Part shown: piece by piece, positions 1 to 13,137 of the stretch | Layout of the letters: each line of letters begins with the position of its first letter | Position numbering within the stretch: the stretch's first letter is position 1 | Origin: Candidatus Ratteibacteria bacterium | GTDB lineage: Bacteria > Ratteibacteria > UBA8468 > B48-G9 > DTJG01 | Length of the DNA: 18,711 bases | NCBI GenBank assembly: GCA_049971295.1 | Contig: JBMFLH010000035.1 | Span: forward strand, 1 to 18,711 | Reading direction: 5' to 3' | Made by a program: the position numbers and the translations under genes | The notes under the pieces: generated by a model | Database searches by the model: none | What the model was told of the DNA's origin: nothing | Seen by the model: only the letters and a program-made list of their open reading frames with translations

Positions 1-46
1 CTATATACGAGAACTTCTTGTGCTGATCCACTCCTATATATCGCAT
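1..46 (-). CDS. IS110-family transposase/recombinase, N-terminal 15 codons (truncated by window edge)
   Basis: Manual translation from ATG 46..44: MRYIGVDQHKKFSYI, matching the IS110 DEDD RuvC-like N-terminal motif Y-x-G-x-D-x-H-K. Strong SD AGGAGGTG at 58..51. Not in the ORF track; only 15 aa visible. Confidence 0.8.
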   Translation of the reverse strand, partial: MRYIGVDQHKKFSYI

Positions 47-104
47 AGCGCACCTCCTCTTTTTTCTTCTTATTTTACTACCAGGGCACTATGCTTTCAT
101 TATA
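1..104 (-). mobile_element. Left end of an IS110-family (IS1111-type) insertion sequence
   Basis: Minus strand reads TATAATGAA-AGCATAGTGCCC...AGGAGGTG-cgct-ATG. TAATGAA (102..96) resembles the short terminal segment that precedes the sub-terminal inverted repeat in IS1111/IS4321-type elements; TATAAT at 104..99; short (~55 bp) non-coding left end. Exact boundary is inferred. Confidence 0.65.
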
Positions 105-108
105 TCTT

Positions 109-348
109 CTATGTGATTTTTTTTGTTGATAAATCCTGTTCACAAAAAATTTCAATCGCTGCATCCGGACATATAATGGCACATTTTTTACATCCTTTAC
201 AATCGCCATTGACCACTTCAATAAAGTGATAGCCAAATTTGTTAAATGATTTGGAAATTGTTAAAAGTTTTTGTGGACACACTTCAATACATAGCCCACA
301 CCCTTTGCACCTGTTTTTATTAATTTTCAGATTAATCCCTTTCCCCAT
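109..348 (-). CDS. 2x[4Fe-4S] dicluster ferredoxin, similar to the delta subunit of 2-oxoacid:ferredoxin oxidoreductases
   Basis: Two CxxCxxCxxxCP motifs (CKGCGLCIEVCP, CKGCKKCAIICP) and linker FNKFGYH. Start placed at ATG 348 (MGKGINL); the ORF-track start at 375 overlaps nadK more deeply. Confidence 0.9.
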   Translation of the reverse strand: MGKGINLKINKNRCKGCGLCIEVCPQKLLTISKSFNKFGYHFIEVVNGDCKGCKKCAIICPDAAIEIFCEQDLSTKKIT

Positions 349-1118
349 GAGAACTTTTCCTTTAATGTATTCCAAAAATCCCAGTTTTCAGGAACCATTA
401 ACTTGAATGATTCTTGACCGGGTTTAATTTCAAGTAATTGCTCTTTTTGCAGGCCTATTCTTTCCTGGCCATCAATAATAATGTCACAATCTTGAGATGG
501 TTTAAGTAAGATTCTTCCTTCATATATGCAGTTTCTCCACGTACCAGTAAATGGTGCAAATGCAACTACTAATATTGACCTGGATTCAGGAAAAACAATA
601 GGTCCTCCTGCTGAAAAAGCATGTGCGGTGGAACCGGTTGGAGTGCTGATTATCATTCCATCTGCTCTAAAATAAAACACTGTGGAACCAAGGGTTAATT
701 CAAACTTCACCATTCTTATGTCTTTTCTAAATACTATCATTTCGTTCAAAGCCCTTCCAGCAAATTTTACTTCATTAAATGGAAAAACGATATTTCCTTC
801 AAGATACATGCGAGGTGAAATACGAAAATTTCCGGACAATACACTCTGCATTACTTTACTCATATCTTTACAATCTATTGTAAGAAAACCAAATTTTCCG
901 AAGTTCAGTCCGAGAAGTGGGATATCAAAAGACGGTAGCATTTTGAATCCTCTGAGAACAGTTCCGTCTCCACCAAGTGAAATGAGAATTTCTGTGTTCG
1001 TAGAACATGGAATAACTTTTGCACCAATCTGTTGAATAATCTTTTCAAGATTATTTCTTATACCGAATATATTCTGAATCTTTGGATTTTCGATTATTGA
1101 AACATTAGATATTTTCAT
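327..1118 (-). CDS. nadK: NAD(+) kinase
   Basis: GGDGT motif, GLNFGKFGFL, ALNE, ADG..ISTPTGSTA..SAGGP, DGQ; follows dxs as is common. Confidence 0.95.
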   Translation of the reverse strand: MKISNVSIIENPKIQNIFGIRNNLEKIIQQIGAKVIPCSTNTEILISLGGDGTVLRGFKMLPSFDIPLLGLNFGKFGFLTIDCKDMSKVMQSVLSGNFRISPRMYLEGNIVFPFNEVKFAGRALNEMIVFRKDIRMVKFELTLGSTVFYFRADGMIISTPTGSTAHAFSAGGPIVFPESRSILVVAFAPFTGTWRNCIYEGRILLKPSQDCDIIIDGQERIGLQKEQLLEIKPGQESFKLMVPENWDFWNTLKEKFSWGKGLI

Positions 1119-2931: not shown

Positions 2932-4283
2932 TTCTTGTTGATCAGTAATTGTTGCTTTGCTGCATCTATCATGTTTGATATTTCATTTCTCGGGGACAAT
3001 TCCTGAGCCCTTGCCCACCAAAAAATTGCCTTGACTGGGTTCTTCATTTTGTAATAAAGATATCCAAGATGTTCAAAGATTTCAGGATCTGATTCTTTTT
3101 TTTGTGCCATCAATAAAAATTTTTCTGCAAGTTTATAATTATTTTTTTTATAATATGCCCAGCCAAGACTGTCAAGATATGCACCATTATCAGGATCAAG
3201 ACTGATTGCTTTTTGGATGAGCTGAAATGCTTCATCAATGTTTTTGTTTTCAAGTAGAAATGAATATCCAAGATAATTCAAAGCAAGATGATTATTTGGA
3301 TCCAGCTGTATCGCTTTTCGCATACATTGTTCCATCTCAACCTTTTTATTCATTTTGTCATAGACAAGTCCCAGATTGAACCATGTTTCAGACGTTTCTT
3401 TTATCATCAGTGCACGCTTATAATAAATTTCTGCTTCTGAATATTGTTTATTTTGAAAACTTATGAATCCAACAATTTGATTGAGCATTGCGGATTTAAG
3501 ATTTTTTTTGATTGCTTTTGTCAAAACCGCCTCTACCTGATTCCAGTCGCCTTGCTTCATATAAATCTCAACCATTTTTTCATAAGGTACAGGGTCTTCA
3601 GGAGATATCTCTGTTGCTTTTTTATAATATTCTATAGCATTTTCATCATTGTTTTGCTGCAAATAGATAGATGCCAGTTGCACATAACTTTTTTCAAATG
3701 CTGGTTGTAATTTTATCGATTCAAGAAAATATTTTTCGGCTTCTTCCATTTTATTCATTTTTACCAGAAGTAGACCAGAATTGAAATAAAGCAAAAAATT
3801 CGAAGGAAATTCCTCAATTAAAATTTTGTAAGACCCAAGGGCTTTCTCGTACTGGTTGGTTAGAACATATAGATCACACAGAATCATTCTATATGATGGA
3901 AATTCTTTTATTTTCAAACCTTTCTCCAGGTACTTAATGGCATTGTCATAGGATTTCATATAGTAATATGTAAGGCCCAAACCCATAAAGTTTTCAGGGT
4001 CACTTTCGTTGAAAGAGATTGCTTTCAAGAATGCTTTTTCTGCTTCTTTGAATTTTTTTTCTTTCAACAAAATTTTACCAATTTTACCAAGCAAAAAACT
4101 GTTGGGGGAATCTTGTTGAAGTGCCTTTTGATACATAACAAACGCATCTTCTAAATTTCCATCGGATTCATATAAAAGACCCTGAATGTAATACTTCCTC
4201 GCCAAATCACGAGTTGTTTCCAATGAAAGTGAAGCGCATCCTGTAAGAAAAAGCGCAACAGCAAGATAAAGAATTATTTTCAT
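2928..4283 (-). CDS. TPR-repeat lipoprotein
   Basis: Signal peptide with lipobox LTGC (Cys16); tandem TPR-like repeats; C-terminal ALNYLGYS...DPDNGAYLDSLGWAYYK typical of envelope TPR proteins. 4-nt overlap with dxs start. Confidence 0.9.
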   Translation of the reverse strand: MKIILYLAVALFLTGCASLSLETTRDLARKYYIQGLLYESDGNLEDAFVMYQKALQQDSPNSFLLGKIGKILLKEKKFKEAEKAFLKAISFNESDPENFMGLGLTYYYMKSYDNAIKYLEKGLKIKEFPSYRMILCDLYVLTNQYEKALGSYKILIEEFPSNFLLYFNSGLLLVKMNKMEEAEKYFLESIKLQPAFEKSYVQLASIYLQQNNDENAIEYYKKATEISPEDPVPYEKMVEIYMKQGDWNQVEAVLTKAIKKNLKSAMLNQIVGFISFQNKQYSEAEIYYKRALMIKETSETWFNLGLVYDKMNKKVEMEQCMRKAIQLDPNNHLALNYLGYSFLLENKNIDEAFQLIQKAISLDPDNGAYLDSLGWAYYKKNNYKLAEKFLLMAQKKESDPEIFEHLGYLYYKMKNPVKAIFWWARAQELSPRNEISNMIDAAKQQLLINKK

Positions 4284-4379
4284 TTATCTTTTTCTTTTCT
4301 TATGCCTGAGGGCGCGTAGCCTCTTTTTTCTTTTGTGTGTTTTGATTTTCCTTCTTTTTCTTTTCCTTCCACACGGCAT
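4284..4379 (-). CDS. Small basic ribosomal protein, bS22 / AURKAIP1-COX24 (mS38) family, 31 aa
   Basis: Manual translation MPCGRKRKRRKIKTHKRKKRLRALRHKKRKR*; SD AAGGAG at 4390..4385; TAA directly abuts the TPR gene ATG. Below the ORF-track length cutoff. Confidence 0.88.
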   Translation of the reverse strand: MPCGRKRKRRKIKTHKRKKRLRALRHKKRKR

Positions 4380-4390
4380 GTATTCTCCTT

Positions 4391-5266
4391 TTAATAGATG
4401 AGCTTGTTAAGATTGTATTCCACTATTCCAGATGCACCAAGTTTTTTTAGTTCTGGAATGATATCCTTCGCCTCTTTTTTATCAATAATAGTTTCAAGGG
4501 CATACCATCCTTTTGCTGCGAGCGGAGCGATGGTGGGTTTTTTAATTGCTGGTAGTTTCTTCAGAATCGATGGAATGTCTTTTTTCTGTGCATTCATTTT
4601 TAGTCCGACTTTTCTGCTTGCATTCAATGCACCTTCCAGAAGCAAAGAAATGTTTTCCATCTTGGTTCTTTTCCAGGGATTCTTCCACGAATTTTTATTA
4701 GCAAAAAAACGTGGAGTGGATTCCATGATGGTATCAATGATTCTTAATCCATGAGAGGCAAGTGTTACTCCGGTTTCTGTAATTTCTACAATTGCATCAA
4801 CAAGATGTCCAGCTTTTATTTCTGTTGCACCCCATGAGAATTCAACGTTACAATTCACCCTGTGTTTTTTTAGGTAGTCTCTGGTTAGATTGACAAGTTC
4901 TGTCGCAATAATTTTTCCTTCAAGGTCTTTCACGGATTTGATAGATGAATTTTCTTGAACAGCAAGGACAATTTTTACTGGTTTCAATCCTCGTTTTGCA
5001 TAACACAATTCACATATTTCAATAATATCAGCTCTGTTTTCAAGAATCCAGTCCTTTCCTGATATTCCTGCGTCAAAAACGCCTAATTCCACGTACCTTG
5101 GAATTTCCTGAGCTCTTATTAAAATTGCCTCTATTTCCCTGTCATCAAAGGAAAGATAATAACTCCTGCTAATATTTGAAACTTCAAATCCTGCGTTAAT
5201 AAAAAGATTGATTGTGGATTCCTGAAGACTACCTTTTGGTATCGCAAGTTTTAATTTTTGATTCAT
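4391..5266 (-). CDS. hisG: ATP phosphoribosyltransferase, long form
   Basis: LAIPKGSL, RAQEIPRYV, D.GI.G.D, SWGATE, DAIVEITETG.TL, C-terminal regulatory domain (PTIAPL...LKKLGASGI); 291 aa. Confidence 0.97.
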   Translation of the reverse strand: MNQKLKLAIPKGSLQESTINLFINAGFEVSNISRSYYLSFDDREIEAILIRAQEIPRYVELGVFDAGISGKDWILENRADIIEICELCYAKRGLKPVKIVLAVQENSSIKSVKDLEGKIIATELVNLTRDYLKKHRVNCNVEFSWGATEIKAGHLVDAIVEITETGVTLASHGLRIIDTIMESTPRFFANKNSWKNPWKRTKMENISLLLEGALNASRKVGLKMNAQKKDIPSILKKLPAIKKPTIAPLAAKGWYALETIIDKKEAKDIIPELKKLGASGIVEYNLNKLIY

Positions 5267-6628: not shown

Positions 6629-7684
6629 ATGCAGATGAAAATCAATGTACTGTTAAATCTGGGCAAAAAACCCAGCGGTGCGGCGAGACCAGTTATTGAA
6701 TTTTTTAACAAACTGTCGATGAATCACGATATTGTTATGTACAAGGCGTACAATCCTAATAAAAACGGCCTGGAATATTTTATTAGAGAAAAAATCGGTT
6801 TTTTGTTAAAAGGCAGAAAGTATACTCAGAACTGGATTGTATCCAATTTTCCTGTAAAAATAATACCCTATTATCATGAAAAATGGGTAAGAGATGGCGA
6901 TATCGTTTTTTTTCGTTCAGCAGACCTTGCAACAGTGGTCTCTCATTGGGGTATTGAAAAAGGGAAAAAAGTGATGAGGGTTTCCAATATTCATATATTT
7001 GACAGTCACATTAGAATTCCTGAAAATATCGTTCTTATCCCTTCGTCAACAATGATATACGAGAAATTGAAGATTTTATATCCAGGACACACAATTTACA
7101 GGGTTGGCAATGGTGTTAATTGTAAGTTTTTTTCTCCTGGAAACAGGACCTATGATAAACCAGCATCACTTGGAATGATTTTATACGAAGGCAGACATTC
7201 TGGTCATAAGGGTATGGACGTAGGTTTTGAAGTGATGAAAAGTATAAAGAGAAAATTTCCTTATCTGCGATTTTTGGTTGTTGGATTGAAAAAACAAAGA
7301 AATATACCTGACTTTGTTGAATTTATTGATGGGTCGACAAGTAATGGTATGTTACAGTTTTATAGAAAGACAGATATTTTTCTTTATTCAAGTTTGGCGG
7401 ATGCATGGCCAAATCCTCCGATGGAGGCAATGGCATGTGGTTGTGCGGTTGTGACAACAGATGTTGGCGGGGTGAGGGATTTTGCGAAAAACCGTGAAAC
7501 AGCAATCATTTGTGCTCCAGGAGATATTGAAGAATTGACGATGGCGGTTGAGCATCTGATTTTTAATCCTGAATTCTGGGTAAAATTGGCAAAAAATGGC
7601 AACATTGCTATTCAACAGTTTGATTATAATATACAGGCAAAAATACTGGAAAAAATTTTCTATGAAATTTTATCAACCAGTTGA
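6629..7684 (+). CDS. Glycosyltransferase family 4 (GT-B)
   Basis: GNGVN, HKG.D, DIFLYSS.ADAWPNPPMEAMACGCAVVTTDVGG. Start may be 6629 or 6635. Confidence 0.9.
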   Translation: MQMKINVLLNLGKKPSGAARPVIEFFNKLSMNHDIVMYKAYNPNKNGLEYFIREKIGFLLKGRKYTQNWIVSNFPVKIIPYYHEKWVRDGDIVFFRSADLATVVSHWGIEKGKKVMRVSNIHIFDSHIRIPENIVLIPSSTMIYEKLKILYPGHTIYRVGNGVNCKFFSPGNRTYDKPASLGMILYEGRHSGHKGMDVGFEVMKSIKRKFPYLRFLVVGLKKQRNIPDFVEFIDGSTSNGMLQFYRKTDIFLYSSLADAWPNPPMEAMACGCAVVTTDVGGVRDFAKNRETAIICAPGDIEELTMAVEHLIFNPEFWVKLAKNGNIAIQQFDYNIQAKILEKIFYEILSTS

Positions 7685-8777
7685 TTATCCTGCAGAAAGA
7701 TTTGAAAGGTTTTATAAAAATCCAGTGTATCTTACATTGCAAAAGCGTATGAGAAGTATACTTGTTTTTATAGGAGAATCCCGTTATGGGGATTTTATGC
7801 TTTCTTTGCCATTTTTTCAGGCGTTAAGAGAAATGTTTCCGGATTCAAAAATTATCTTTGCAGGCCATAGATTGAATGGTCTTGAAAAATTTTCTGAGAT
7901 ATTGCCATTTGTGGACATTTACTATGAAATGAGGATGCGTAAGAAAAGAGAAGTATTATTCAAATGGCATTCTTTATTTTATCTTTGTTTGAAAGAAAAT
8001 GTTGACCTTTTGATTGATACTCAAAGATATTCAATTGTTAACCTATTGCTTGCCTGTTTACCTGTGCGATACAGACTTGGCTATGGAACAAAGTGTTTTT
8101 TCTCCAACTGGAAGTTTAGCGAGAAAGGTAGGAAAAACATTCACGATATATTTCAACTATTGGCTCTTTGTAGAGTATTAGGTAAAGCGGATATAAAACT
8201 ATATGTTGACATTGAATTTCCTGAAGAATATAAAAATAAGGTCAGACCAATAATTTCTCAATCAGGCAGATGGGTTTCCATTTTCCCAGGGGCATCAGAA
8301 AAGGAGAAATGCTGGCCACCTGAAAGGTTTGCCGCAGTGGCAGATGCTCTGGCAGAAATGGGGTATGCCATTTTGTTACTTGGAAGTTCAAAGGAAAAGG
8401 AACTATTGGTGCGGGTAAAAAGAAATATGAAGTATCAGCCGGTTATTCCAGTTTTTATCAATGATGAATTCGGGAAAAACCCTGTTTACGCTGCCTTGTT
8501 TTGTTCAAAGAGCAAGTTGTGTATCAGCAATGAAAGTGGCGGTGTGCATTTTGCCGGACTTGTTAACACGCCAATCGTTGGTATATATGGGCTGAAAAAT
8601 CCTGTAAAGTGGGGACCTTTGAGTCACAATAGCATTGCACTTTATAAAAATTTACCATGTTCTCCCTGCAAAATGAGGAAAGCAAAACTTGCCTGTCCTC
8701 TTAATAGAAAGTGTTTGCTTGATATTACAGTGGAAGAAGTCATTGAAGCATGTAAAAAGTGTCTTGAAGAGTCTTGA
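7662..8777 (+). CDS. Glycosyltransferase family 9 (LPS heptosyltransferase-like)
   Basis: YGDFMLSLP, IDTQ, FPGAS..EKCWPPERF, ISNESGGVH, IYG...P..WGP, PCSPC..C...C. Start placed at ATG 7662 rather than 7596 to reduce overlap. Confidence 0.9.
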   Translation: MKFYQPVDYPAERFERFYKNPVYLTLQKRMRSILVFIGESRYGDFMLSLPFFQALREMFPDSKIIFAGHRLNGLEKFSEILPFVDIYYEMRMRKKREVLFKWHSLFYLCLKENVDLLIDTQRYSIVNLLLACLPVRYRLGYGTKCFFSNWKFSEKGRKNIHDIFQLLALCRVLGKADIKLYVDIEFPEEYKNKVRPIISQSGRWVSIFPGASEKEKCWPPERFAAVADALAEMGYAILLLGSSKEKELLVRVKRNMKYQPVIPVFINDEFGKNPVYAALFCSKSKLCISNESGGVHFAGLVNTPIVGIYGLKNPVKWGPLSHNSIALYKNLPCSPCKMRKAKLACPLNRKCLLDITVEEVIEACKKCLEES

Positions 8778-8781
8778 TTTT

Positions 8782-9735
8782 TTATACTCTTGCTATCTTC
8801 TGTAGCAGTTTCCATGAGATGGTTTTTCCTTTAAGAAATTTTGCAAGTTTTTTCACGTGACTGAAGTCGTCTTTTACTTCTGTTGCCCAGTGTAAGGTGA
8901 CCGGAACAATGAGAGAAAGCGGTGTTAATGTTTTCATCCAGAAAAGTATATTTTCGGTTGTTCCTGAAAATGGTTTATAACCGGCTATGTAAATGGAATT
9001 ATTTAATACACACGGAACGACATAAAATCCGAATGTTTTGGCCGACGAATATCCTCCGCACACGATTTTGAAATGTTGTGAAAAAACGCAAAAGTTTGTT
9101 TTTTCAAAAGTGTCAAATGGCGGTATAAATGCAACAGGATTCAAAGAAAAATTTTTTAAAATTTGGATGCCTTTTTCAATTTTTTCATTTGTTTTGTGCT
9201 CCGAAAGTCCGACAAATTCAGAATGAAATTTACTCCTTGTTAATGTCTGGTGAGTTAATCCGTGTAGTGCAATTTCTATCGTTGAAAATTTTTTTATTAA
9301 AGAAATTTCTGTGTCTGTCAATTCGTAATAATTCTTCTCGTGTGGATTATGTCGATTCTTACTTAATTGTGGCGTAATACCAAGTAAAAATTTTATTTCA
9401 TTTTCTTCGAAAATGGATGCAAACTTCTCGAATGTTTTAGAAGGATATTCCCAGTGAGGAAAATCATCAACCCTGATCAAAAATGAATTTTCAGACAAAT
9501 TCATATGTTTGCCTGAGAAAAAATGAAATGCCTGTCTGATTTTTTCTATTTTCTTAAGAACGATTAAATACTGTCTATCTCGATACGACATGGAGAATGT
9601 TTTTTTTAATAAATAAAATTTATCAGCGACAAGGTTATAGTGACCGCTGGAAACAAAATTACGAAGGTCATAGTCCGTAATCTCAAAGGGTCTTAATAAA
9701 AACCTTAAACTTTCAAAGATGTTCTCAATTACCAT
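8782..9735 (-). CDS. Polysaccharide deacetylase-like protein (DUF2334/CE4-like)
   Basis: IRVDD, IALHGLTHQ, SEF.GL, FIPPFD, TLHW motifs. Confidence 0.8.
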   Translation of the reverse strand: MVIENIFESLRFLLRPFEITDYDLRNFVSSGHYNLVADKFYLLKKTFSMSYRDRQYLIVLKKIEKIRQAFHFFSGKHMNLSENSFLIRVDDFPHWEYPSKTFEKFASIFEENEIKFLLGITPQLSKNRHNPHEKNYYELTDTEISLIKKFSTIEIALHGLTHQTLTRSKFHSEFVGLSEHKTNEKIEKGIQILKNFSLNPVAFIPPFDTFEKTNFCVFSQHFKIVCGGYSSAKTFGFYVVPCVLNNSIYIAGYKPFSGTTENILFWMKTLTPLSLIVPVTLHWATEVKDDFSHVKKLAKFLKGKTISWKLLQKIARV

Positions 9736-10988
9736 CTGCCTTCCAGTATGTTCACAAACCTTTTTGCCATTTCAATATGACTGAACCTCATAAGCTCTTC
9801 CTTAATTCCCATATATGTTACCTGACCACGTTGTTTCCATTGTTTATATGCATTTACAAGATAGATCTCAATTTCCTGCAAGGTCTGACAATGGTTTCCT
9901 GCCTGTGTTTTTATAAGAAGTTTTTCTATTTCGCCGCCTTTTTCGCCAATAGAAATAATTGGCCTTCGTGCCGCCAGGTATTCAAAAATTTTCGCGGTGA
10001 GTGTACCCTCTTCTCCCTGTAAACTTGCTGTTAGAATGAGTAATATCTGACTTTTTCTTTGAATGGATATTATCATGTGGCGTGGTTGTGTGCCATGATA
10101 CTGAACAATATCCCGAAGTGAGTACCTTGAGGCAAGATTTAAAACCCAGTATAGATCCGGACCATAAAAGTTGATTTTAATATCTTTTTTATCAAGGGCA
10201 TTTTTTTTAACTAAATTGTTTATCGCTTCGAAGAGCATGGACGGATTTTTTGATAAAGGATGCATGGAACCAGTGTAGGTTATGGTGAAGGAATCTGTAA
10301 TCATACTTGTTTCAGTAGATATTTCTTCAGGATCAAATCCATTGGGAATAACAAAGACGCGTTTATCAGGATGGTCTTTTTTAAGGCGATCAGCCATGTA
10401 TTCTGAAACAATGGAAAGGGCATCGGCCCTTTCAAGTACTTTTTTTTCTAAAGATTTTTCGAAACGTGTTCTGAGTGAGTTTCTTCTGAATTGGGTCCAT
10501 GGATCTCTGAAATCCGCCAGCCAGAAAATTTCTGGATAAATTTTTTTCAGATATGATGCAACAATGTGACAGGTTGCTGGGCCAAAATTACTTACAATAG
10601 CTTGAGGTTTTTCTTTTTTTATTATTTCTTTGCCCGCTGATACTGCGAATGGAAGCCATCCGATTCTGCTATCGGGTATGTCTATCATGCCTCTAAAGAA
10701 CGAATAAATCCTGCCGTTAAAACCAGGCAAAGGGCCTGCTATGGATTTCAATCTTCTTCGTAATTCAGGATTGGTCAGATACGGAAGCAACTTCTGATAT
10801 GGGGGATGAGTTTGAACAACATTAAAATAATGTTCGGGTTCATCGGGAAGAATGGTGGTCAAAACGATAACGTGCCATCCAAATTCAGGAAGGTATTTGG
10901 CAAAACCCCGGGCACGGATCGCACCAACCTTTTTCGATGGAGGAAAGTGATACGTGATGTAAAGAACTTTTTTTTTGTTTTTACTCAT
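9729..10988 (-). CDS. Glycosyltransferase family 4 (GT-B)
   Basis: YHFPP...GAIR...AKYL...GW, ADFRDPW, IPNGFD, YTGS, KIFEYLAA.RPI. Confidence 0.9.
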   Translation of the reverse strand: MSKNKKKVLYITYHFPPSKKVGAIRARGFAKYLPEFGWHVIVLTTILPDEPEHYFNVVQTHPPYQKLLPYLTNPELRRRLKSIAGPLPGFNGRIYSFFRGMIDIPDSRIGWLPFAVSAGKEIIKKEKPQAIVSNFGPATCHIVASYLKKIYPEIFWLADFRDPWTQFRRNSLRTRFEKSLEKKVLERADALSIVSEYMADRLKKDHPDKRVFVIPNGFDPEEISTETSMITDSFTITYTGSMHPLSKNPSMLFEAINNLVKKNALDKKDIKINFYGPDLYWVLNLASRYSLRDIVQYHGTQPRHMIISIQRKSQILLILTASLQGEEGTLTAKIFEYLAARRPIISIGEKGGEIEKLLIKTQAGNHCQTLQEIEIYLVNAYKQWKQRGQVTYMGIKEELMRFSHIEMAKRFVNILEGRW

Positions 10989-11002
10989 TTTTTTAAGGTT
11001 TA

Positions 11003-11053
11003 GTATAATTGGATTATTTATTATACACCAAATCAGAAAATTGTACCTGATTT
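11003..11053. repeat. Two adjacent 7-N10-7 palindromes in the upstream region of the 10988 gene
   Basis: GTATAAT-N10-ATTATAC (11003-11026) and AAATCAG-N10-CTGATTT (11030-11053); the first contains TATAAT on both strands. Confidence 0.5.
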
Positions 11054-11176
11054 TTTCTGCACTATTTCTGATTCTGTCAATTGCAAAAACCGGTAATGAG
11101 TTTTGAAATACATATGATAAAAACAGAAAAATTTGTTTAGCCGGAATAAATAATGGTTACTTATTGTAAGATTTGT

Positions 11177-12025
11177 TTAGTTATCCTTTTTACAAACACC
11201 AAATAGCTCTATGGACTTTTTAATCTGTTCCTTTTGATCCACGAGGAAAAATTCATTCATAGAAAATTTTGAAAAAAGATTATCGAATGATAAATTTGCT
11301 GATGTTTGTTTGGTGAGCTGCAACAATTTCAAAACCTTTCGAACTGTTTTTTTAATTGAGGTAACCGGTGTTTTGTAGACTCTTGTTTTTTCTATTTCCT
11401 CAATCCATTGAACAGCTCGTAATCCTTTTATTTGGACATTACTAAAACTGGGTTTCAAGATTTTTAACAATTCCTTGTAGGTAAATTCCTGATAATGTTC
11501 TTTATTAAATGGTTTTTGCCACGGAAGCAATCGGAAATTTTTGTTCGGAGTAATAACAAAAAACAACCCATCTTGATTTAGTAGTCTTTTAACATTTGAA
11601 AGAAAATGAACTATTTGATTAGGATGAATGTGTTCTATAATTTGAGAGGCAATGATGACATCAAACCAGTTGTCAGGGTATGGTAAATTTTCAGCATCCA
11701 AGTTTTCAAATTTTACATTTGGTAGTTTTCTGTTTTCCTGTGCAAATTTTATTGCTTTTGAATCACTATCAATAGCAATAATTGAACATGCTTCTGTATA
11801 GATACGTGTTTCACCATAACCTATAAAACAACCTATGTCGAGCACTTTTCTATTTTTACAGAAAGGTGCAATGAGGTCGTATGTTTTGATGTGCCGGGCA
11901 TGTACCAGGAATGCTGGAAAATTATTTTTATATTTTTCAATGTTCTTAATCTTGCCCTGTTTACTTAAATAATCGACAAGAACATAAAAATCTTCTAAAA
12001 CGGTGGTTTCTATTCTTTTGTGCAT
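11177..12025 (-). CDS. Class I SAM-dependent methyltransferase
   Basis: VLDIGCFIGYG motif I, AIDSD, DAENLPY.D..FDVI, IIEH, ITPN, EHYQEF. Confidence 0.9.
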   Translation of the reverse strand: MHKRIETTVLEDFYVLVDYLSKQGKIKNIEKYKNNFPAFLVHARHIKTYDLIAPFCKNRKVLDIGCFIGYGETRIYTEACSIIAIDSDSKAIKFAQENRKLPNVKFENLDAENLPYPDNWFDVIIASQIIEHIHPNQIVHFLSNVKRLLNQDGLFFVITPNKNFRLLPWQKPFNKEHYQEFTYKELLKILKPSFSNVQIKGLRAVQWIEEIEKTRVYKTPVTSIKKTVRKVLKLLQLTKQTSANLSFDNLFSKFSMNEFFLVDQKEQIKKSIELFGVCKKDN

Positions 12026-13137
12026 AACACCCTTTTGTAAATACTATCTATTTTTTTTCCGATTGCTTCATGGCTAAAGTATTTTGCATATTGAGCTATT
12101 TTATTCGAGGAATATTGTTGATAATGGTCTAAGATATATTCAATGGCGTCAGCCAGAGCTTTAGCATTACGTGGTGGAACAAGAATGCCAATGTCAGGAT
12201 TGACTTTTTCTTGCAGTACTGGCAGACTTGTTGTTATGACTGGTTTTCCGCATGCTATGGCTTCTAAAATCGTAATCCCGAAAGTTTCATACAGGCTTGG
12301 TTGTACATAAAAATCACATTTTCTCATAAATTCTGCAACCTCAGGTTTTGACTTCAATCCATGAAACACCAGCATTTTGTCAATTCCGTATTTTATGGAC
12401 AATTGTTCATATTCTTTTCTCTTGTGGCTATCACCAACAATGTCTAAAACAAAATCCTGTCTTTTTGTCTTAATAAGACTTACCGCTTGCAATAGATATG
12501 AGAAGCCTTTATTTTCAGAAGGCGACCCAACAAATAGCATTTTTTTTAAATCATTGTCTTTTCTTTGCGGAATTGGAAAAAAAATTTCAGTGTTTATCAC
12601 GTTAGGTATAATTTCAAATCTGCTTTTGATTCCATAACATGTTATTGAATTTTTCAAATTTTCACTCACGGGCAAAACAATTCTGGCTCTATGAAAAACA
12701 AAACGCGCTTCCCAGATTTTGAGTTTACTCATTTTTCGTCGAGAAAAAATACTCCAGTGTTCAGATATGATCACAGGTATATGATAGATTTTCCCAAGTA
12801 TTATTGCTGGTAATCCTGCAAGAAAGATATGTGCATGAATAATATTGGGCTTCCATCCATTGCTTAATAATTTTTTGAAGATTCTTATCATGCTGAAAAC
12901 ATATGCAATCTCTTTTAGAAATATTATTTTTTTATACCTTGCTCTGATTGTTCTGATTCCATCTTCAACCCTGTCAGAGACTATTTGATAGAATGTTTTT
13001 ATTTGTTGATCGAATTCACTATAGACCACGATCACATCGTTAAAAATGGACACAGCTTTTGCATGTTCTTTAATAAATATTCCATTGATTGGGCTTTTTT
13101 CAGATGGATACCAGGCAGTAAGAAAAAGAATTTTCAT
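12010..13137 (-). CDS. Glycosyltransferase family 4 (GT-B)
   Basis: WYPS....GIFI.EHA, IIHAH, SEHWS, IPN, NKG, PSLYETFGITILEAIACGKPVI (E-x7-E). Confidence 0.93.
   Translation of the reverse strand: MKILFLTAWYPSEKSPINGIFIKEHAKAVSIFNDVIVVYSEFDQQIKTFYQIVSDRVEDGIRTIRARYKKIIFLKEIAYVFSMIRIFKKLLSNGWKPNIIHAHIFLAGLPAIILGKIYHIPVIISEHWSIFSRRKMSKLKIWEARFVFHRARIVLPVSENLKNSITCYGIKSRFEIIPNVINTEIFFPIPQRKDNDLKKMLFVGSPSENKGFSYLLQAVSLIKTKRQDFVLDIVGDSHKRKEYEQLSIKYGIDKMLVFHGLKSKPEVAEFMRKCDFYVQPSLYETFGITILEAIACGKPVITTSLPVLQEKVNPDIGILVPPRNAKALADAIEYILDHYQQYSSNKIAQYAKYFSHEAIGKKIDSIYKRVLCTKE

Follow-up and report, generated by a model that had tools for sequence, protein, structure and literature searches.

The window analysed here is an 18,711-nt stretch of a Candidatus Ratteibacteria genome, and contig C35, one of the 127 contigs of the assembly, consists entirely of it. 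The window very probably carries, at its edge, the left end of an RNA-guided mobile element of IS1111 type, about 1.28 kb long, which occupies six sites in the genome and is directed to Shine-Dalgarno (SD) sequences by its guide. We also consider it highly probable that the copies land in the ribosome-binding sites before host genes and rebuild that signal. The ends, the repeat, the core and the sites were read from the genome's own sequence, and the recombinase and the RNA fold from close relatives; the steps of the mechanism draw on covariation and on the IS110/IS1111 mechanism as published in the available parts of PMC11187229 and PMC11208160. The RNA-guided IS110/IS1111 class has been known since 2024. 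What appears to stand out here is an SD/start-codon target encoded by the guide, a target that an earlier note on this DNA had overlooked.

The Left End in the Window

Read on the minus strand, positions 107..1 are the left end of an element of the IS110 family, IS1111 type. The features of this region are as follows.

1..46, minus strand: first 15 codons of an IS110-family recombinase, including the first catalytic Asp (D7), truncated by the contig end
47..105, minus strand: short non-coding left end of 59 nt, 86–90% identical to the left ends of full copies
51..58, minus strand: ribosome-binding site of the recombinase gene, AGGAGGTG, whose AGGAGG ends 6 nt before the ATG
86..99, minus strand: left sub-terminal inverted repeat, 14 bp, exact
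99..104, minus strand: predicted −10 box TATAAT, 5 bases past the ferredoxin stop TAG
106..107, minus strand: AG core dinucleotide, common to target and donor; an occupied site has it at each of its two junctions, an empty site a single time
108..114, minus strand: left target half, made of the ferredoxin gene end and the start of the next gene's ribosome-binding region
109..375, minus strand: host 2x[4Fe-4S] ferredoxin gene with Fer4 domains, which lies upstream of the insertion in the same orientation and outside the element
327..1118, minus strand: host NAD kinase gene of the same operon

The minus-strand ATG at 46 begins MRYIGVDQHKKFSYI in a frame that leaves the window at base 1, and AGGAGGTG is complementary to the 3′ end of the host's own 16S, the tail of which was located on contig C41. 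This frame, together with AGGAGGTG at 58..51, TATAAT at 104..99 and the ferredoxin stop (TAG) at 111..109, is present just as the earlier note had described it. The boundaries drawn in that note have to be moved. The left inverted repeat lies at 99..86 and not at 95..84; the right-end repeat, predicted as GGGCACTATGCT, is actually GCACTATGCTTTCA; and a flank taken to run from 115 to 105 would include base 105, which is element.

As listed, the ferredoxin frame shares 327–375 with the end of the NAD kinase gene. An alignment to relative G002 makes a later ferredoxin start, at about 348, the more likely one.

Copies in the Assembly

Six left and five right ends of the element are present in the assembly, all of them at contig ends, and the element body is absent. 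The left-end stretch, read from 107 inwards, is repeated at five further contig ends with 97–99% identity and unrelated flanks; all five matches start at window 107, and they span 107, 107, 107, 78 and 53 bp, limited by the contig ends. At a few left-end bases the genome's own copies vary among themselves. When one mismatch is allowed, the 14-mer of the repeat (99..86) has 11 occurrences; 10 of these are exact, where 0.015 exact matches are expected from composition, and every occurrence is at most 126 bp from a contig end. Six of the occurrences fall in left ends and five, inverted, in the second common end, in line with the proposal that a sub-terminal inverted repeat would have its partner in a matching right end.

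The left junction reads flank-AG-ATATAA-repeat and the right junction repeat-GGGG-AG-flank, with GGAG replacing GGGG in the right end of one own copy. AG is found in 22/23 distinct left flanks and in 11/11 right flanks. Gene order in relatives pairs C23 with C90, C26 with C113, C70 with C89 and C108 with C119, and C46 is paired with C94 by elimination only. The window pairs with C68, where the downstream gene reappears at the contig start; C68 begins at codon 31 of that gene, and the window's right junction is missing from the assembly. Empty orthologous sites, which the earlier note had suggested looking for, are found in relatives and carry an SD, an ATG and a single AG, the left and right flanks overlapping by 2 bases. 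Insertion thus leaves no true target duplication and involves one short shared core, as is characteristic of the IS110 family.

When the element ends are joined over one core, a predicted TTGCAC-17 bp-TATAAT promoter results. The −35 box sought near the right end is there, as TTGCAC, and a circle would give the promoter its 17-bp spacing; in the window as it stands, the promoter scan lists nothing that uses TATAAT at 104..99. A circle-junction promoter is predicted in 6/6 elements with a spacing of 16–18 bp, by a pattern to which two −10 variants were added once the sequences had been seen.

The element was not found in 14 other genomes of the family (completeness 62–97%), where the site is empty, and its ends occur in 1/64 other genomes of the phylum. 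The 251 genomes around G065 yielded one further element, in G065 itself, and viral contigs yielded one 21% match.

Full Copies and the Recombinase

A 20-base left-end pattern retrieved 21 metagenome stretches, two of which (L020 and L023) were dropped, having no recombinase after the motif and unrelated sequence downstream. Both ends are present in seven stretches, with an intact 349-aa frame in five of the seven and a full element length of about 1.28 kb. The genome's own ends are 86–94% identical to those of the full copies. The protein of the full copy L011 matches PF01548 (E 4.7e-18) and PF02371 (E 5.7e-24), and it scores 253 bits against NF033542, for which the cut-off is 140. The full copies thus carry the DEDD_Tnp_IS110 and Transposase_20 domains as well as the D-E-D-D and SG residues of the IS110 family, and the family assignment made earlier is supported by these copies elsewhere. 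D7, E54, D92, D95 and S260 are conserved in 23 recombinase sequences; the window covers residues 1–15 and so D7 alone. The expectation of a short left and a longer right end also holds in L011, which has 56 nt of non-coding DNA before the gene and 170 nt after it.

Among the matches listed, the closest named recombinases are those of ISAtu7 (34%) and ISGsu4 (30%); IS5708 matches at 28% over half the length. Similarity to the solved IS621 and ISCro4 is confined to residues 189–330 (E 1e-13 to 1e-14). Judged by sequence, this branch is distant from the characterised recombinases. ISAtu7 itself is classed as IS1111, yet it is at most 29% identical to the elements in the columns listed, according to the part of the source data of PMC11187229 that is available.

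Decayed copies also exist. In L029 no recombinase follows the left end, and the frames of L014, L019, L024 and L027 are broken or shortened. The left-end remnant of L029 (L029:2501–2570) lies immediately before a host gene that bears its own SD.

Several properties place the element with IS1111. Its sub-terminal inverted repeats, measured in the genome's own ends, are 14 bp long; a length of 11–13 bp is usual for IS1111 in the accessible text of PMC11187229, and 7–17 bp is given for sub-terminal inverted repeats in that of PMC11208160. The IS1111 rule of 7 (or 6) + 3 bp is exact in L045, L048, L051 and L086. The window's element follows it only when the mismatched outermost pair is counted, that is, when base 100 is taken in as a fifteenth repeat position, and L069 (10+3) and L047 (8+3) depart from it. 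The longer non-coding region downstream is seen in L011, the element's own right region being unassembled, and the strand order of the RNA, with the top-strand complement before the bottom-strand match, was computed on relatives. The narrow IS110 group of IS621-like elements, with a long RNA-bearing left end and no long repeat, does not fit a left end of 59 nt, a 14-bp repeat and an RNA at the 3′ end.

Insertion Sites

At 10/11 distinct right junctions an ATG stands 4–6 nt past the core and opens a frame of 68–410 codons, the modal offset being 5 nt (6/11 sites). The background for AG, GAG and GGAG sites in the genome is an ATG at 5.6–8.4% (binomial P ≤2e-10, for sites that are partly non-independent, as several loci may derive from related samples). 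The eleventh junction has its ATG 12 nt on, preceded by a second SD. L011 and L018 have the same right flank and different left flanks, so one of the two is probably mis-assembled. For this genome alone, 4/5 right junctions show an ATG at that spacing. Left flanks end in GGAG in 16/23 distinct cases, and at its six own sites the element is co-oriented with the downstream gene and lies within or just before the SD of that gene.

The window's site can be read uninterrupted in relative G008 (89% DNA identity), where it consists of an SD, 5 nt and the ATG of a sugar-isomerase-like gene. Public-run contigs show an empty site in a relative at the window's locus in 2/3 runs. For the copy in G024, no empty sites were found among five genomes of its genus.

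The right end and the core together read GGGGAG, and the downstream gene therefore receives a new SD at the same distance. Computed pairing with the host anti-SD after insertion is stronger at 3/5 sites, about equal at one and slightly weaker at one.

A half element at L049:1165–1400 has once more an SD and an ATG after its right junction. An anti-SD-like stretch follows immediately after its gene.

The Guide RNA

All RNA evidence comes from relatives, whose ends are 86–94% identical; this genome's guide RNA is absent from the assembly. In full copies the 3′ end carries a predicted two-domain RNA fold (z −3.4 and −4.5). In the loop of the first domain, the 3′ strand is AAAAGGAG, which is the left target plus the core; on the 5′ strand lies the complement of G-GAAACAT, a sequence made up of the second core base, the spacer and the start codon; the right guide thus holds the complement of CAT at the modal ATG offset. 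The second domain contains AGGGGAG, identical to the right end plus the core, and TATAT, the complement of the five bases with which the left end begins. The loops of the relatives' RNA therefore match both target and donor, which is what the fold and complementarity check proposed for it was meant to find. The earlier note had placed the guide RNA downstream of the transposase. The 3′ position stands, but the RNA is not wholly outside the gene: it is predicted to begin, with its target loop, 39 nt before the end of the stop codon, inside the recombinase gene.

Five relatives (L045, L047, L051 and L048, at 56%, 47%, 41% and 39% identity to the L011 protein, and L069, found via a profile) keep this RNA layout with other letters, and the letters follow their own flanks and ends. 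Over six elements the guide-flank target score is 87 against a permutation mean of 46.5 (1/720) and the donor score 55 against 38.7 (1/720), in registers that were set with the flanks in view. A register-free target test gives 92 against 71.3 (2/720), and with the loop strands swapped the register-free score is 66 against 65.5 (358/720), which is no signal. The permutations left out L046 and L049, whose ends or loops are unresolved, and L067, and used L030 as the only representative of the close copies. A further element, L086 (50%), the seventh, was read afterwards; by eye and in the same registers it matches its left target at 7/9 and its right target at 9/10 positions, and its donor guides are complete. 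In five relatives that are distant or do not sit in an SD, the same guide positions agree with the own flank at 6–10/10.

Within the clade the matches are loose, at 4–9/9 on the left and 3–7/9 on the right. The idea that the guide should encode the window's flank holds in part, the relatives' left target guide agreeing with this flank at 5/9 positions. When the guide positions outside the ATG are used to scan the genome, 17/95 sites scoring at least 9/10 are gene starts, as against 1019/202,298 overall, an enrichment of about 35-fold; among sites with a perfect score, 0/9 are gene starts by a simple definition of start. Pairing with the ATG, or selection, must accordingly add to the placement, and selection may indeed do so at gene starts.

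In the fold of minimum energy, the two strands of the target guide form pairs between themselves, and RNAalifold on a MAFFT alignment put the outer stem in a wrong register, so the structure itself is given with no claim of covariation. Rfam returned no match at the gathering score in four loci.

Some of the relatives show features of their own. In L016:1779–1923, the right target guide carries a one-base substitution that at the same time turns Ser into Pro in the recombinase tail, and it agrees with a G at the matching flank position; this is a single case of guide-protein coupling. L045 is also inserted in an SD, and it shares one genome with L069 (G065; about 1380–1420 and 2780–2810), which has the same RNA layout and is inserted in a REP-like palindrome. 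The junction cores of L051 (G020) differ, with TG on the left and TA on the right; its left and donor guides read TG and its right target guide pairs with the A, a pattern that suggests exchange between the two core bases.

Proposed Mechanism and Alternatives

The element would excise as a circle, at whose junction the TTGCAC-17-TATAAT promoter would form and drive a transcript yielding both recombinase and guide RNA. The first loop would pair with the target AAAAGG-AG-GAAACATG (SD, 5-nt spacer and start codon) and the circle junction would be paired with the second. Through recombination at the AG core, the element would then come to lie between the gene's upstream DNA and its spacer and ATG, so that the downstream gene would retain spacer and ATG and receive GGGGAG from the element. 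Such an insertion would probably be near-neutral for translation, and the orientation of resident copies suggests transcription from the promoters of host operons. A full copy showed no terminator-like site, but there is a 9-bp hairpin in the right end, so insertions may have some polar effect.

We give about even chances to a broader reading, in which the guide of this lineage encodes the initiation region (SD, 5-nt spacing and ATG) and the donor end is shaped to rebuild the SD. The element would in this way gain low-cost entry before many genes of any host with a canonical SD, and expression from host promoters. As the right target guide is also protein-coding, retargeting would change the recombinase tail.

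The placement at gene starts could also have another origin. The guide might pick loose, purine-rich AG sites, with insertions elsewhere being purged and those in SDs remaining as harmless, and the looseness of the pairing speaks for this: of the genomic sites that score high against the guide, a minority (17/95) are gene starts, right flanks match at just 3–7/9 positions, the left flank of L015/L030 matches at 4/9, and SD flanks are of low complexity in an A-rich genome. We nevertheless find this account unlikely. The complement of CAT stands in the right guide exactly where the ATG most often lies (5 nt, 6/11), the same positions agree with the own flank at 6–10/10 in five relatives that are non-SD or distant, and purging alone leaves the uniform orientation and the scarcity in other intergenic DNA unexplained.

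Guidance to the SD by the element's own RNA, the reading we prefer, would not carry over to the window if its copy were a dead or truncated left-end remnant, or belonged to a sub-lineage with another guide, to which the relatives' RNA would be inapplicable. There is a very small chance of this. In its favour, remnants such as L029 exist, as do broken or shortened frames (L014, L019, L024 and L027), five right ends were found for six left ends, and the own copies differ at a few left-end bases. Against it, a full-length repeat collapsed in assembly would account for the contig break and for the downstream gene's reappearance where C68 starts, the own right ends are 86–94% identical to those of the full copies, and every own site fits the relatives' target. 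It is scarcely conceivable, finally, that the frame is an ordinary host gene start, such as another RNase H/ASKHA-fold protein beginning YIGVD. The window has 15 codons only, and the assembly gives no PF01548 match to the element, but the stretch occurs in six copies with different flanks, and it was not found in 14 other family genomes (completeness 62–97%), where the site is empty. The same 20-mer precedes full IS110 recombinases elsewhere, and the repeated copies and these recombinases together refute the host-gene explanation.

If the broader reading is true, the element would lend itself naturally to placing cargo between the genes of an operon. The targeting and repair of ribosome-binding sites would explain how a site-specific element spreads across hosts without a dedicated landing pad. 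The usual targets of the IS110 family are repeats such as REP, attC and transposon ends. An SD-encoding guide would, in addition, give a molecular reading of an old observation on IS900, and the branch supplies seven natural sets of guide, target and donor with a common RNA layout.

Comparison with Known Systems

IS900, an IS110-family element of Mycobacterium avium subsp. paratuberculosis, was reportedly found by Doran et al. in 1997 to target translation initiation signals. The two elements differ in how they use the host signal. In IS900 it is borrowed by hed, a frame on the strand opposite the transposase (PMC8141618, in the part available), whereas here the recombinase is co-oriented with the host gene and has its own SD, and the element end rebuilds the SD of the host. 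The available part of PMC8141618 describes no guide RNA for the target choice of IS900.

Among the closest parallels are the IS1111 seekRNA elements ISEc11, ISKpn4, ISPst6 and ISPa11 (Siddiquee et al. 2024, PMC11187229). As far as the accessible text of that paper goes, they have in common with the present element the sub-terminal repeat, the 7+3 ends, the longer 3′ non-coding end, the circle-junction promoter (predicted here), the recombinase size (349 aa) and the G..P....SG motif, as well as the RNA strand order of top-strand complement followed by bottom-strand match. Their targets are attC, REP or the ISEc11 site, whereas the target here is the SD/start-codon region; the target loop here starts inside the coding sequence. 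The bridge RNA of IS621 (Durrant et al. 2024, PMC11208160, in its accessible text) likewise has two loops, for target and donor, a 2-bp core, left guides that match the top strand, right guides that are complementary, and a circle-junction promoter. Unlike IS621, the present element has its RNA at the 3′ end, reversed loop strands, an AG and not a CT core, and a long repeat, and, of the two core bases, its right guides cover the second at most.

The openly searchable full texts, a scope that leaves out subscription papers, gave no report of a bridge or seek RNA guide that encodes an SD and a start codon. The terms 'Shine' and 'ribosome binding' are absent from the searchable supplements of PMC11208160 and PMC11187229, where the target logos are figures, and an SD-like target may be on record there. 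The accessible parts of PMC7823733, 10.1101/2025.10.25.684509 and 10.64898/2026.08.14.744561 hold nothing relevant.

Further Observations

IS110 domains on C113/C106 and on C102 were considered as the missing element body and rejected as belonging to other elements with other ends. In G000, C113:3045–3439 and C106:1–960 carry one IS110-family recombinase gene split over two overlapping contig ends, and C102, at about 3990–4839, carries another with different ends; C113 has the right end of the SD-targeting element at one end and another IS110 at the other. Several further repeats break the assembly at G000 contig ends, for example C14/C15/C16/C100/C110, C10/C56/C76 and C8/C13/C83, and these are probably the ends of further mobile elements.

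The rhizobial relative L086 (237–250 and 1710–1790) seemingly sits within the coding sequence of another transposase, its flanks forming what we take to be an IS6-like frame. Within the window, 6629–13137 is a cluster of frames on both strands, which are presumably, judging by motifs, glycosyltransferase-like, deacetylase-like and methyltransferase-like.
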